Shown here: positions 5,286 through 16,848 of the stretch, one piece after another
Numbering within the stretch: the first letter of the stretch is position 1
Layout: each line of letters begins with the position of its first letter
Source: Gammaproteobacteria bacterium
GTDB taxonomy: Bacteria; Pseudomonadota; Gammaproteobacteria; SZUA-152
Assembly: GCA_024276955.1 (NCBI GenBank)
Contig: JAJRWE010000033.1
Location: 54-64,053, forward strand
DNA: 64,000 nucleotides
Direction: 5' to 3'
Translations under genes and position numbers: made by a program
Notes under the pieces: generated by a model
Told to the model about the DNA's origin: nothing
The model's input: only the letters and a program-made list of their open reading frames with translations
Databases searched by the model: none

Positions 5286-8200
5286 TCAGGTCATCGGGGA
5301 AGCATAAACCGGCGACGGCAGCATTGGGTAGGTGCGATACACATGCCTGAACACCTCCTCTGCTCTTTTGTTCACATCGTCCTCCGTGTACGCGTCAACG
5401 GGGAGCCCCGTTTCATCGCCCCACAGATAATCATGTATCGTAACTCGCACCGCATCACGGGTGGCTTCCTTGTCACGCCAGTGGTCAATGCGTAGCTTTT
5501 CTTCTTTCAGCCGCTCCAGTAACTGCGCCGCAACCTTCTTGATTTTCTTAATTTCTGTCGACTGCAAATCGGGCTTCTTCAAAAGATCGAAAATCGCCAA
5601 CGACTCTTCATCCAGCCCTTCACGAACGGCACGGTGTTCCTCTTCATCGAGCGCCTGAACAAGACTGAACAGCGCTTCAAAGGTTTTTTCGATCGTCGCC
5701 CGGTCTTTCTCTCGATTGTACCCAGCAACAATATTCTCGTAGTGCTGCTGAAAATCGGTGCGCAAAGGGTTTTGTTGCAAGAGGCGCTGCAATCGCTGTT
5801 CCACGGCCTGACGCAGGTTCTGCACGGTCGTATTTTTTGCTGAATGATGCCCAAACTCCTTGCGCAACAAATCAAAATCAATCTTGCTGATGTCATACGG
5901 CACAGGCTCCTCGCCCACGCACTCCGGCTGCACCTCGATCGCCTCATCCACCACCTGGTGCAACTGCCGAATAATGCCGCTGATATCCGCCTGCTCACGA
6001 TCCTGTTGCAGGCTCTTGTAAACAATGTTGATCGCATCTCTATCCGACCGATGAGCATTGATGCCCTGAACATTGATACAGGCCTTGAATTTCTTGAATA
6101 CCTCCCGGCACATCACCTCGAAGCGTTTACGACTCTCGTCACTCTCGTTGGCCGCTTCCTTGCAGGCGACGATGGCGGCATTGCGCTCAAAGCCGGTCTT
6201 TTGAATGATGTCATCAAGTGTAGCGGCCTGGCCTTCGAGAAACATTCGCACCAAAGCAATGGCCTCGGCCAGATCCGCCAGCAACTCCTCATCCGGCCGT
6301 GCCGGGTCGATCGCGCCACCCTCGCCCTCTGGCTGGGTACCCGCGAAGGTCGCCAGCGCCTTGCGCAGGTGCTTGAGAATGCCGCAGTAATCTACGATCA
6401 AACCGTTGTTCTTTCCCTCGTTGACGCGATTGGCACGCGCGATGGCCTGCATCAAGGTATGGGCCTTGAGGGGCTTATCCAAGTAGAGCGTGGCAAGGCT
6501 CGGCACATCAAAGCCAGTCAGCCACATGGCGCAGACAATCGCCACGCGCAGCGGATGCTCCTGCGCCTTGAAGGCATCGTCCAGCGCCATGGTCTGCATA
6601 TTTCGATACTCGGGCTTCTCTCGCATCGACTCGGGCAGATCGATACCCTCCTTCATCAGCCGGCGATGCGGGGTGATGTCCAGACCCCACTGGCGGAACT
6701 TGTCTACCTCGCCCTGCTCCTCACTCACCACCACCGCCATGCGGGTCTCGCGCATCCAGTCGAGCTGGCGACGGCGGAACAGCTCTTCCTGTTCATCGTC
6801 GATGGTTGCCAGCCCTTTTTCCAACTCACTGATTCGTTCGTCCCAGTAGAAGCCAATCAGCCGGTGCATGCGCACGCAGGTTACCTTGTCGATGCACACC
6901 AGCATCGCCTTGCCGGTCTCCCACGCGGTGGCGTAGTGCTGCACGAAGTCCCGCGCCACCTGATCGAGCCGCTTGTCGGCGGTGATAATGTGGTAGTCGC
7001 GCTTGAGTTCCCGCTCCAGCCGCTGCTCGACATCGATGTCATCGGCCTCCAACGCTTCCAGCTTTTCAGCAATACGTTCGTTGAGGTCACCGATGGCCAC
7101 GCCCAGCTTCTCGCCACGGGCATCGTAGTACAGCGGCACCGTGGCCTTGTCCTCCACCGCGCGCTGAAAGTCGTAGGTGGAAACATACTCGCCAAAGACC
7201 CGACGGGTGATCTCGTCGTCTTTGAACAGCGGCGTGCCGGTAAAACCGATATAACTGGCATTAGGCAGTGCATTGCGCAGATTGAGCGCCAGTGTGCCGT
7301 ACTGAGTGCGGTGTGCTTCATCGGTAATCACGATGATGTCATCACGCTCACTATAGGGCTGCTCCGGCTCGACCTTTTGATTAAACTTCTGAATCAGCGA
7401 GAAGATGTAAGCCTTGTGCTGGGTCAGCAACGTATTCAGATGACGGCCACTGGCCGCCCGGCACGGTTCCTGCTCACTCACCACGCCGCAATTGGCAAAG
7501 GTCTTGTAGATCTGGGTATCGAGATCGTCACGGTCGGTCAATACCAGAAAGGTAAAGTTGCCACCGAGCTTGCGGTGCACCTTGCGGGTAAACATCACCA
7601 TGGAATAGCTCTTGCCCGAGCCCTGGGTATGCCAGAACACACCCAGCTTTCCCTGCCGTGCCTTGCGCTCGCGCACGGAATCGATGGCGCGATTGACACC
7701 CAAAAACTGGTGGTTGCGGGCGATGATCTTCTTCGGCTCACCGGTGGTCTCATCGAACAGAATGAAGTTCTCCAGAAAGTCGAGAAAATTGCCCTTGTCA
7801 CACACGCCCTTGAGCAGTGTTTCCATGTCCACCGCCCCCGGGGCATCCTCGGCCAGGCGCTTCCACTCGTTGAAATGTTCCCAACGGCTGGTCATGGAGC
7901 CGATCTTGGCTTGCTCACCGTTACCAAACATCACGATGGCGTTGTGGTGGAACAGGTGTGGAACGGTATCGAGATAGTCGGAGAAGTTTTGTTCGAAGGC
8001 GGTCTTGAGATTCTTGTGAATGTTTTTGCATTCGATGAACAGCAGCGGCAAGCCATTGATGAAGCCAACGATATCCGCCCGCCGTCGGTAGAGATCACCG
8101 CGCACCCACAGCTCGCGCACGCAGAGAAAATCGTTGTTCTCTGGCTCATCGAAGTCAAGCACCCGCAGCCGCTGACGTACCCGCTCGCCGGTATCGTTGC

Positions 8201-8516
8201 GAAAGGTTACCTGCACACCATCACGCAACTGGTCGTATTTCTCGCGATTGGTGGCCACTAGCGGCTGCGAGGCGACGATGGCAGTCATCTGCCGCACGGC
8301 ATCGTCATAGGCCGCATCCGGCAGGCCCGGATTCAGTGACACCAGCTTCTCGCGCAGCGTTCGTGTCAGCACCACCTCACGATCAGAAGTACGACCCAAA
8401 AGGCTATCCGGCCCGAAGTCCTCGTTGTTCCAGGCATACACCGACCGCCAACCGAGCTGCTGTTCCAGATAGTTGGCGGTGGTCTGCTGGACGAGGGTGT
8501 CTTCGGTGTAGTTCAT
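5286..8516 (-). CDS. hsdR: Type I restriction enzyme R subunit HsdR
   Basis: 1076 aa; SF2 helicase/HsdR motifs (GSGKSYSMV, VITDEAHRTQYG, FTGTPLFKDDEITRRVFGEYV, QAIARANR); last gene of the hsdM-hsdS...hsdR minus-strand array. Confidence 0.92.
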   Translation of the reverse strand: MNYTEDTLVQQTTANYLEQQLGWRSVYAWNNEDFGPDSLLGRTSDREVVLTRTLREKLVSLNPGLPDAAYDDAVRQMTAIVASQPLVATNREKYDQLRDGVQVTFRNDTGERVRQRLRVLDFDEPENNDFLCVRELWVRGDLYRRRADIVGFINGLPLLFIECKNIHKNLKTAFEQNFSDYLDTVPHLFHHNAIVMFGNGEQAKIGSMTSRWEHFNEWKRLAEDAPGAVDMETLLKGVCDKGNFLDFLENFILFDETTGEPKKIIARNHQFLGVNRAIDSVRERKARQGKLGVFWHTQGSGKSYSMVMFTRKVHRKLGGNFTFLVLTDRDDLDTQIYKTFANCGVVSEQEPCRAASGRHLNTLLTQHKAYIFSLIQKFNQKVEPEQPYSERDDIIVITDEAHRTQYGTLALNLRNALPNASYIGFTGTPLFKDDEITRRVFGEYVSTYDFQRAVEDKATVPLYYDARGEKLGVAIGDLNERIAEKLEALEADDIDVEQRLERELKRDYHIITADKRLDQVARDFVQHYATAWETGKAMLVCIDKVTCVRMHRLIGFYWDERISELEKGLATIDDEQEELFRRRQLDWMRETRMAVVVSEEQGEVDKFRQWGLDITPHRRLMKEGIDLPESMREKPEYRNMQTMALDDAFKAQEHPLRVAIVCAMWLTGFDVPSLATLYLDKPLKAHTLMQAIARANRVNEGKNNGLIVDYCGILKHLRKALATFAGTQPEGEGGAIDPARPDEELLADLAEAIALVRMFLEGQAATLDDIIQKTGFERNAAIVACKEAANESDESRKRFEVMCREVFKKFKACINVQGINAHRSDRDAINIVYKSLQQDREQADISGIIRQLHQVVDEAIEVQPECVGEEPVPYDISKIDFDLLRKEFGHHSAKNTTVQNLRQAVEQRLQRLLQQNPLRTDFQQHYENIVAGYNREKDRATIEKTFEALFSLVQALDEEEHRAVREGLDEESLAIFDLLKKPDLQSTEIKKIKKVAAQLLERLKEEKLRIDHWRDKEATRDAVRVTIHDYLWGDETGLPVDAYTEDDVNKRAEEVFRHVYRTYPMLPSPVYASPMT

Positions 8517-8525
8517 GCCTGGCGA

Positions 8526-8894
8526 TCAGTCCTTGCCATAAGCCAGTGTCAGTGAATCGGCCACCTTTCGCAGGCGCTTGTCCCGTGTCCACAGTTGCGC
8601 CGAACCGGCCAAGGCCACCGCCGCCAACAGGTGAGCATCCACATAACCAATACCTCGCCCCATCAGTGCATGCCGTTCGATGAAAAACCGCACTTCGTCA
8701 TCCGTAGCGACCGTCACATGCGGCAGATCATTGAGCAGCGCCAACACCTCATCCCGGTTGCCAAGGTTGCCGCAGGCCAGCTCCCCCAGCACAAAGGGGT
8801 GCATCAGCACTTGGCTGTGATTCAACAGAGCGGCCAGGTCTTTGTCACCGACGCGCAGGTGATCGATCCAGACCGAGGTATCAACCAGGATCAT
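8526..8894 (-). CDS. vapC: PIN-domain toxin VapC
   Basis: Probable start MILVDTSVWIDHL (internal Met of the 151 aa ORF); PIN acidic residues; overlaps vapB by 14 nt. Confidence 0.85.
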   Translation of the reverse strand: MILVDTSVWIDHLRVGDKDLAALLNHSQVLMHPFVLGELACGNLGNRDEVLALLNDLPHVTVATDDEVRFFIERHALMGRGIGYVDAHLLAAVALAGSAQLWTRDKRLRKVADSLTLAYGKD

Positions 8895-16173: not shown

Positions 16174-16730
16174 GGTACAACCTTATCACCCAACAAATAC
16201 CATGCGTACTTTGCAAGTGCTGAGCGCCAGAAATCTGAAACCACCGGGAGGGGAAAGGGGGCGGGGGTCAGCGTAGACCTACGTACTACGGCGAATTATA
16301 GACAATTCAGCCGGCACAAGTGGCTCTTGAGGTGGGCATGACAGAGCCACATTTCTGAGATAAGTGGTAGGCCCACAGGGTTCTTACCAAGACCTCAACC
16401 CGTTCAACAGCGTCCATAATTAACAGTCGCAATTCCCGATCAAAGACATAAAGGTCTACGACCTAAATGGCACTGACTTAAGGCAATAAGTACATATAAT
16501 CCACTAGGTTGAGCAAAGCTACCGCGTCCTGCTATCGCTCCTCGCCTAAGAGCGCCTACTTTTGGTGCCTACATCCATGTATGCAAAGCGTAGCGTGCCC
16601 AACATCTCCATGCATTCCGTTGGGCACGTCGCTATCGCTCCTTTGCCCAACCTACATACTGTCAGTACAAAAGCCAGAGGCCACGTATACCCTTCACATC
16701 CCTGCTTACCGAGCGATACAAACGACACTA

Positions 16731-16760
16731 AAAAGCCCGCACGAGGCGGGCTTTGAGTAT
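16731..16760 (-). terminator. Rho-independent terminator downstream of the tRNA
   Basis: Minus strand reads aagcccgcctcgtgcgggc followed by ttttt. Confidence 0.5.
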
Positions 16761-16771
16761 TGCCGTCTTTA

Positions 16772-16848
16772 TGGTGGGCCCGCACGGACTCGAACCGTGG
16801 ACCAAGGGATTATGAGTCCCCTGCTCTAACCAACTGAGCTACAGGCCC
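16772..16848 (-). tRNA. tRNA with CAU anticodon (tRNA-Ile2 lysidine type or elongator Met)
   Basis: 77 nt: GGGCCTGTAGCTCAGTTGGTTAGAGCAGGGGACTCATAATCCCTTGGTCCACGGTTCGAGTCCGTGCGGGCCCACCA. Cloverleaf is consistent. The anticodon stem-loop and variable region resemble enterobacterial ileX. Confidence 0.9.

Follow-up and report, generated by a model that had tools for sequence, protein, structure and literature searches.

A strain-variable Type I restriction island downstream of an rpoD-tRNA(CAU) locus, and hsdR 5′ scars that suggest how its cargo was gathered

Introduction

How do defence and toxin-antitoxin genes come to lie inside the operon of a restriction-modification (RM) system of Type I, between hsdS and hsdR, and how does such an operon come to lie next to a tRNA gene? 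Both questions are raised by a locus in a 64,000-nt stretch of DNA from an uncultured gammaproteobacterium (JAJRWE010000033.1, positions 54-64,053; this whole stretch is called the window, and coordinates refer to it unless a comparison locus is named). Embedding in RM operons is now used to discover immune systems (‘guilt-by-embedding’), and in the literature searched the route by which embedded genes arrive is unexplained. A preliminary description of the locus, made from its sequence alone, had seen here an old tRNA-associated island whose mobility genes are lost and whose hsdS-hsdR gap accumulates cargo.

Comparison with related loci, fetched for this purpose and numbered L001 and so on, makes it probable that the locus is an 11.5-kb horizontally acquired island (about 5187-16667), a partly decayed copy of one in which accumulation has been anchored at hsdR. 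A more tentative answer to how the cargo was stacked comes from short copies of the 5′ end of hsdR that are found at module boundaries and are called scars below.

A variable segment downstream of rpoD

All genes of interest at the locus, from the dnaG/rpoD end to a sugar kinase of the FGGY family, lie on the minus strand, in the order rpoD, tRNA(CAU), metallophosphoesterase, hsdM, hsdS, HEC-01A/B, MNT/HepT, vapBC and hsdR. The flanks, the junctions and the outer parts of the island are as follows.

18822-20618, minus strand: dnaG, upstream of rpoD
16888-18747, minus strand: rpoD, the conserved right flank (six sigma-70 Pfam domains; 97% amino-acid identity to L001 and L081)
16772-16848, minus strand: tRNA(CAU), probably tRNA-Ile2 (ileX-like), found by ARAGORN 39 nt past the rpoD stop
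16730-16754, minus strand: intrinsic terminator, a hairpin and T-run directly after the tRNA, read from the sequence
16668-16729, minus strand: post-terminator flank common to island-less relatives, in which the breakpoints of the variable region fall (four-way alignment)
16174-16667, no strand: non-coding island spacer, not present in L168, where 159 bp of other sequence take its place
15430-16173, minus strand: metallophosphoesterase (Pfam Metallophos; PADLOC PDC-S10 9e-10)
5187-5285, no strand: left end of the island, 3′ of the hsdR stop (homology to L081 restarts at about 5186)
3611-5068, minus strand: FGGY-family sugar kinase, the conserved left flank (FGGY_N and FGGY_C; 92% amino-acid identity in L081)

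The preliminary description had proposed a comparison of relatives at the rpoD-tRNA locus, and there the block indeed proves variable, with at least three kinds of occupant between rpoD-tRNA and the FGGY kinase. In L081, recovered from a metagenome scan with the FGGY kinase, rpoD and the kinase are 97% and 92% identical in amino acids to those of the window and lie 1.9 kb apart: window 18779-16670 aligns with L081 3-2112 (94%) and window 5174-2769 with L081 3634-6018 (92%), and in the 1.5 kb of other content in between an unrelated toxin-antitoxin pair of PIN/AbrB type is encoded on the opposite strand (2313-2911). The sole close relative in the rpoD genome scan, L001 (97% amino-acid and about 91% nucleotide identity), loses homology shortly after the tRNA and carries at the same site (12377-18153) a TniB-like ATPase, a split Mu-type transposase, a cNMP-binding protein and an IS66 transposase, after which the contig ends. 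An exact-match look-up of the rpoD protein of the window returned no record. The same island is present in L168, found via the ATPase, as the rpoD 3′ end, tRNA(CAU), metallophosphoesterase (95%), hsdM, hsdS, HEC-01A (99%) and HEC-01B (97%). In five further FGGY-kinase relatives (L082-L086, 74-77% identity) neither rpoD nor a tRNA stands within 10 kb, and they are uninformative on the empty site. As side observations, L081 holds a simple repeat of CCGACG/CCCGAC type at about 3290-3370, and unrelated Type I genes lie downstream of rpoD in L002 and L046.

The origin of the block is indicated by its proteins and its composition. HsdR is 80-90% identical in amino acids in records of Sulfuricaulis, Acidithiobacillus, Roseovarius, Thiodiazotropha and Desulfobacterales, whereas rpoD is at most 72% identical in all but one genome of the collection scan; this spread across phyla, together with a G+C content of 45-48% over hsdS and HEC-01 against 55-62% nearby, implies horizontal origin. 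By these sequence comparisons, the block varies between strains and was acquired horizontally. Its metallophosphoesterase recurs alongside Type I operons of this family: copies 80-95% identical in amino acids stand upstream of the hsd genes in L161, L164, L167 and L168.

A variable segment between conserved flanks could also arise without any mobility encoded by the element at this locus, if the site is a passive hotspot at which whole segments are swapped by homologous recombination in the flanks (rpoD-tRNA and the FGGY kinase). This explanation is given a little under an even chance. It draws on the shared conserved flanks that surround four different occupants (in the window and in L168 the island, elsewhere a small toxin-antitoxin pair or transposon and insertion-sequence genes), on the staggered breakpoints and lack of att sites described below, and on Sedimenticola hydrogenitrophicus, where a vapBC pair 90%/73% identical in amino acids to that of the window lies about 280 bp after that genome's own rpoD-tRNA(CAU) (L010 12222-12772). 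Yet swapping between flanks leaves the first arrival of the island in the lineage unexplained, related islands clearly have integrases, and the site comparison covers four relatives only.

The tRNA and the ends of the island

ARAGORN calls the tRNA(CAU) a tRNA-Met. Its best Escherichia coli match (83% over the full length) is annotated tRNA-Ile, which together with the rpoD neighbourhood points to tRNA-Ile2 (ileX-like) as its probable identity rather than tRNA-Met. Of 80 rpoD loci of Gammaproteobacteria, about 50 have a tRNA(CAU) downstream.

On the right, homology to the window runs through the tRNA and its terminator and breaks 40-100 bp beyond the tRNA, at about 16725 in L168, 16700 in L001 and 16668 in L081 in the four-way alignment; a hairpin also stands at the terminator position in all three relatives, with differing stems. 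On the left, the junction lies at about 5187-5215, with a possible weak similarity to L081 up to about 5215. The tRNA 3′ end is not repeated, the two junction regions share no direct repeat of 8 nt or longer, and no integrase ORF (open reading frame) was found in the locus; the L161 and L167 integrases, used as tblastn queries on the whole window, had no match below E = 0.7. These searches bear out the earlier statement that no integrase or att repeat is visible.

An integrase that inserted the island into the 3′ end of tRNA(CAU), with integrase and att sites later eroded, would make it a classical tRNA-targeting island. Several traits point in this direction: the island adjoins the tRNA, has a foreign composition and occupies a site that varies among relatives; tyrosine integrases stand beside the metallophosphoesterase in L161 and L167, and integrases also occur in L245 and L250; and the L167 island directly follows tRNA-Phe. 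Insertion into the tRNA is nevertheless considered unlikely, given that the homology of the island-less relatives passes the tRNA 3′ end and the terminator and ends at three positions, and that neither a repeat of the tRNA end nor an integrase remnant is present. In 21 other rpoD-tRNA(CAU) loci with enough sequence, 77 ORFs beyond the tRNA were scanned against Pfam: integrase families were not among the 25 listed of 77, no neighbour recurred, and the genes that follow the tRNA there are unrelated housekeeping genes; tRNA(CAU) as a general integrase target was rejected on this result. A mechanistic link between island and tRNA, as the preliminary description had implied, is therefore not supported by the junctions, and of its further claim that mobility genes had been lost the part that stands is plausibility, in view of the tyrosine integrases in related islands (L161, L167); the window itself shows no remnant. 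Recombination in the flanks accounts for the staggered junctions at least as well as loss of mobility genes does.

Around these junctions, 598 bp separate the tRNA 3′ end from the start of the metallophosphoesterase gene, in agreement with the earlier estimate that the block ends about 600 bp from the tRNA and with the placement of this gene upstream of hsdM, and the stretch of about 560 bp between the tRNA terminator and this gene is gene-free. A 28-nt sequence within the island spacer (16541-16568) recurs in inverted orientation, with 27 of 28 positions matching, in the gap between purE and the DAO oxidoreductase gene (1337-1363); the pair may be a small repeat of the repetitive extragenic palindrome (REP) type. 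At the other end, 217 bp separate the hsdR stop from the FGGY kinase, which is followed by a GDPD phosphodiesterase, the DAO oxidoreductase and purE. A consensus scan of the locus for promoters and terminators gave fewer sites than in shuffles. The window also carries a tRNA-Thr (CGT) at 43722-43797.

The gap between hsdS and hsdR as a cargo site

Inside the island, the gap between hsdS and hsdR holds 3.65 kb of cargo in three modules (HEC-01, MNT/HepT and VapBC), all on the strand of the hsd genes.

13370-15226, minus strand: hsdM with HsdM_N deleted in frame (N6_Mtase 2e-66; without an HsdM_N match)
12168-13373, minus strand: hsdS, two target-recognition domains, low G+C (two Methylase_S stretches; PADLOC Specificity_I 4e-140)
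10979-12103, minus strand: HEC-01A, ABC ATPase (PADLOC HEC-01A 3e-92; also AAA_21)
10335-10973, minus strand: HEC-01B, DUF4276/TOPRIM-like partner (PADLOC HEC-01B 8e-27; LVEGHGE, RDEDD)
10066-10365, minus strand: orf99, a doubtful small ORF or spacer (start conserved in L168; region absent from L167)
9607-9897, minus strand: MNT, intact MntA-type nucleotidyltransferase antitoxin (NTP_transf_2 5e-13; PADLOC PDC-S09 1e-33)
9266-9610, minus strand: HepT toxin pseudogene (Pfam HepT-like match only at profile positions 1-48 of 120)
8881-9087, minus strand: vapB antitoxin (VapB_antitoxin 8e-20; copies 90-92% identical in amino acids in L010 and L166)
8526-8897, minus strand: vapC PIN toxin (PIN 2e-10; NCBIfam VapC 2.5e-8)
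5286-8516, minus strand: hsdR, full length (HSDR_N, SWI2_SNF2/ResIII, T1R_D3-like and T1RH-like_C; PADLOC REase_I 3e-159)

The Pfam and PADLOC matches uphold the gene identities and coordinates given earlier, apart from the start of hsdM, which is corrected below. The modules had been described as nested; in the window they stand in tandem.

Related loci were compared through their HsdR proteins, and among homologues 80-90% identical 11 different cargo sets were found between hsdS and hsdR, or upstream of hsdR.

L161: Polbeta, DarTG and MNT/HepT directly upstream of hsdR; no hsdM or hsdS seen in the fetched stretch
L162: two unknowns upstream of hsdR
L163: SIR2 and RhuM
L164: DUF488 and an unknown
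L165: MC6/DUF2326, a helicase and an IS21-like element
L166: CTD10/MC6/DUF2326, RhuM-Fic, VapB and AAA_14/DUF4143
L167: HEC-01 alone
L245: reverse transcriptase, with an integrase upstream of a Fic gene and the hsd genes
L250 (E. coli): RecQ and DprA, with an integrase at the left end
L251: an unknown 683-residue protein
L252: AbiEi/AbiEii

Every close HsdR homologue with fetched context thus carries different genes at this place, and the earlier suggestion that the gap is a cargo-accumulation site holds well beyond the window: by gene content, it is a cargo site general for this HsdR family, a phenomenon that has already been published. Two of these loci also show the company that the operon keeps elsewhere. 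L167 has the order mutY, yggX, tRNA-Phe, integrase, metallophosphoesterase, HipBA, hsdM, hsdS, HEC-01A/B and hsdR, and in L161 a tyrosine integrase adjoins a metallophosphoesterase 81% identical to that of the window. Genes that stand after hsdR in other islands are missing from the window copy. Searches of plasmids and E. coli genomes with the hsdR DNA gave only partial matches of 67.7%; one annotated E. coli locus among them, L250, supplied a further architecture.

Scars of hsdR at module boundaries

Between HEC-01 and MNT the window holds a short ORF that begins like hsdR. Its start, ATG 10053, and the codons MTLTADTEDSLVQQT are followed by unrelated sequence and a stop, and its 29-mer at 10006-10034 matches the hsdR 5′ end at 8481-8509 in 27 of 29 positions. 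A general repeat scan of the window returned this as the sole convincing pair. With a spacing of 1525 bp, these two matching stretches enclose exactly the MNT/HepT-VapBC block, and the order hsdS-HEC-01-hsdR of L167 is the arrangement expected before that block arrived. Comparable scars were found in five further loci (E 1e-16 to 5e-5, with decayed frames), one of them the more distant L204.

Window, 9976-10053, minus strand: scar between HEC-01 and MNT
L161, 8371-8454: scar between DarG and MNT
L163, 9551-9676: scar between SIR2 and RhuM, 93% identical to the locus's own hsdR over 70 nt, with the allele-specific QALGWRS
L165, 3806-3979: scar after DUF2326
L166, 7013-7093 and 8548-8625: two scars at cargo boundaries
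L204, 8235-8279: scar in a more distant locus, from the viral-contig scan

More specifically, one of the two L166 scars follows a vapB 92% identical to that of the window and keeps the junction of the vapC 3′ end with the hsdR start as it is in the window. The viral-contig scan met mostly distant HsdR families, with L204 as its one extra scar. As controls, internal hsdR segments gave only weak matches (E 4e-4 to 0.006), and a symmetric search of all cargo for scars of the hsdS 3′ end found none. A second candidate in the window, after the HepT stop (9230-9266, about 9264), in which ATGGATTACGCCGAAAAT weakly resembles the hsdR start ATGAACTACACCGAAGAC at 14 of 21 nt by eye, may be an older scar or a chance similarity and was not accepted.

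Taken together, the scars suggest serial recombination anchored on hsdR, and so offer a modestly new lead on how embedding happens; a full-text literature search found no paper that describes hsdR 5′ scars, which in a limited library is no proof of novelty. In the process envisaged, the backbone of metallophosphoesterase, hsdM, hsdS, cargo and hsdR belongs to a widely transferred Type I family, carried elsewhere on integrase-bearing islands, and new modules would enter it through recombination for which the conserved hsdR gene is the anchor. The event could proceed either by one-sided homologous plus illegitimate recombination of incoming DNA that carries cargo and hsdR, or by Campbell-type insertion of a circle with cargo and an hsdR 5′ fragment. 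Each event would leave a short hsdR 5′ scar at a module boundary. The ancestor of the window island would probably have had hsdS-HEC-01-hsdR as in L167, and the MNT/HepT-VapBC block would have joined it later, together with a new hsdR start. That cargo embedded in Type I RM operons is not placed at random but stacked in this way, by repeated events at the conserved hsdR 5′ end, each of which brings a module with a new hsdR start and leaves the previous one behind as a scar, is a working proposal to which somewhat less than an even chance is attached.

The repeat might alternatively be no scar at all and reflect chance similarity, or a leader peptide or regulatory element upstream of the cargo. 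The shortness of the window copy would suit this, as would the calling of several scars as small ORFs of 57-67 amino acids in related loci. On the other side, a second match to the 29-mer appeared in none of 100 shuffles, and the scars of the other loci have variable end points and decayed frames, which together with the allele-specific QALGWRS that the L163 scar shares with its own hsdR makes this explanation improbable. The scar ORF of the window moreover stops 78 nt short of the MNT start, which makes translational coupling unlikely.

State of the restriction genes

Two of the three hsd genes appear complete. HsdR has the N-terminal nuclease, the superfamily 2 (SF2) motor and the C-terminal helical domain of Type I enzymes, and scores 499 bits against TIGR00348, above the cut-off of 284.55. 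HsdS has two target-recognition domains, and its central conserved region is 89-94% identical to homologues at the nucleotide level. Compared with L168 (3511-4728), residues 1-91 of the window HsdS (12168-13373) are unalignable and the rest is 79% identical; this unlike first target-recognition domain implies a specificity swap.

The third gene has been damaged. The preliminary description had placed hsdM at 15277-13370, of which the end is right (the gene runs to 13370 and shares 4 nt with the hsdS start) and the start is not: translation begins at GTG 15226. Aligned to homologues of 704-722 amino acids, HsdM lacks 126 codons, deleted in frame with the junction at 15126-15138, and with them most of its HsdM_N domain. 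The 13-nt repeat ACGAATACTTCCT stands at both end points of the segment missing from the window hsdM, as seen in L166, where the segment is present. The catalytic domain and its NPPF motif are retained, and the protein scores 76 bits against TIGR00497, under the cut-off of 242.75. A different in-frame deletion affects the same domain in the hsdM of L168 (1478-3514), at about residues 6-56.

In EcoKI, amino acids 1-153 make up HsdM's N-terminal domain, a bridge between the two HsdM subunits that clamps the DNA, and this domain holds m* and r- m* mutations (PMC2647291). From this clamp role and these mutations we infer that restriction, and perhaps normal methylation, would be impaired, so that restriction in the window is probably impaired. 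The two independent deletions of HsdM_N, in the window and in L168, are a hint, on the basis of two metagenome assemblies, of selection against restriction with downstream expression kept. Of the operon as first described, gene order and the hsdM-hsdS overlap are upheld, and the operon is partly decayed, through the loss in HsdM and the amber stop in HepT.

The cargo modules

The ORF of the HEC-01 ATPase spans 10979-12160, and ATG 12103 is probably its true start because homologues have 374 amino acids. It has the Walker A motif GANGSGKS as well as IGIEEPE and THSP, and also matches the AriA profile (5e-31), with a partner gene of the DUF4276 rather than the DUF4435 kind. That partner, HEC-01B, is 87% identical in amino acids to its counterpart in L167, and the glutamate of LVEGHGE and the RDEDD motif would fit a TOPRIM metal site. 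Its Pfam DUF4276 match (22.6 bits) lies under the gathering score of 30.2, and its assignment therefore rests on the PADLOC HEC-01B match and these motifs. An ABC ATPase beside a TOPRIM-like protein with metal-binding E and DxD residues is what a candidate HEC-01 pair would be expected to show. The adjacent orf99 had no match in Pfam, PADLOC or NCBIfam.

The first toxin-antitoxin module is only half intact. MNT matches NCBIfam MntA_antitoxin at 8e-14, under the cut-off of that model, and lies beside a HepT gene with an in-frame TAG at 9431-9433 (codon 60 of 114); this stop precedes the RNILVHNY motif, and HepT is therefore a pseudogene as read. In the second module vapB and vapC overlap (8881-8897), as expected of VapBC, and the vapC stop lies 9 nt ahead of the hsdR ATG. 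This spacing makes it likely that hsdR is co-transcribed with vapBC, and its expression may be driven from the vapBC promoter.

With these modules the island would formerly have been a multi-layer defence locus, made up of Type I restriction, a candidate nuclease system of ABC ATPase and TOPRIM type, two toxin-antitoxin modules and a metallophosphoesterase with a weak match to the defence candidate PDC-S10; the toxin-antitoxin modules may serve in abortive infection or keep the locus stable. The window copy is partly decayed, with no integrase, trimmed ends, the amber stop in HepT and the loss of the HsdM N-terminal domain.

Weighing the explanation

Several points weigh against an hsdR-anchored island and against the stacking proposed for it. 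The comparison relatives are all metagenome assemblies. The window scar measures only 29 nt, and 6 of the 11 architectures have no scar. Scar end points vary (about +36, +60, +88, +114 and +183 nt), a spread that argues against site-specific recombination, and in L166 the scar nearer to hsdR is the more diverged, contrary to an order in which the newest module lies nearest to hsdR. On the functional side, methyltransferase activity could have survived the HsdM deletion, and HEC-01 gave no phage protection in its sole published test (10.1101/2024.01.29.577857). Mechanism, order of events and functional state are, in short, what we infer from sequence alone, and the whole, a locus of known kind, is an ordinary strain-variable defence locus whose restriction system may be disabled.

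If the stacking proposal is true, the gap between hsdS and hsdR becomes a readable stratigraphic record of successive acquisitions of defence genes, and hsdR a homology ‘docking arm’ by which modules move between unrelated genomes without mobility genes of their own. The deletions in HsdM_N could then mean selection to switch off restriction while the operon is kept as a carrier of cargo. The proposal has a testable signature: module boundaries carry scars of the hsdR 5′ end, and scars of the hsdS 3′ end are absent.

Comparison with known systems

With tRNA-linked genomic islands the window island shares its place beside a tRNA, its foreign composition and its variable presence, and related islands have integrases; it differs in having neither an integrase nor an att repeat, and in a junction that lies past the tRNA and its terminator. 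Its toxin-antitoxin modules resemble known types. MNT has the GS...DxD motif and HepT the RX4HXY motif of MNT-HepT (type VII) systems, with the difference that HepT is broken by an amber codon, and the VapB and PIN-domain VapC with overlapping genes are those of VapBC (type II), except that here vapC abuts hsdR across a 9-nt spacer.

The ATPase module is of the kind named Hma-embedded candidate 1 (HEC-01) by Payne et al. (2024), whose ‘guilt-by-embedding’ survey defined it (10.1101/2024.01.29.577857). As there, the pair consists of two genes, for an ABC ATPase and a TOPRIM-like protein, with motifs intact; the published HEC-01 sits in an Hma system, whereas that of the window sits in Type I RM. 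The combination of ABC ATPase and TOPRIM is also that of PARIS AriAB, OLD and Gabija, with DUF4435 as the partner in PARIS against DUF4276 here.

The closest parallels to the operon as a whole are Type I systems with genes embedded at the same place. In the T1RM system of VPI-2 of Vibrio cholerae, TgvAB lies between hsdS and hsdR (PMC11411939), and the RRDM island of enteropathogenic E. coli (EPEC) has the order RptR-hsdM-hsdS-DarTG2-hsdR, its gap being termed a potential recombination hotspot (PMC12255303). EcoprrI-PrrC and the islands with TgvAB and DarTG2 share with the window a one-strand order of hsdM, hsdS, a defence or toxin-antitoxin module and hsdR, and L161 has DarTG as well. The window differs from EcoprrI-PrrC, TgvAB and RRDM in lacking an RptR-like regulator, in its truncated hsdM, in carrying three tandem modules where they carry one, and in the hsdR 5′ scar that stands between two of these modules.

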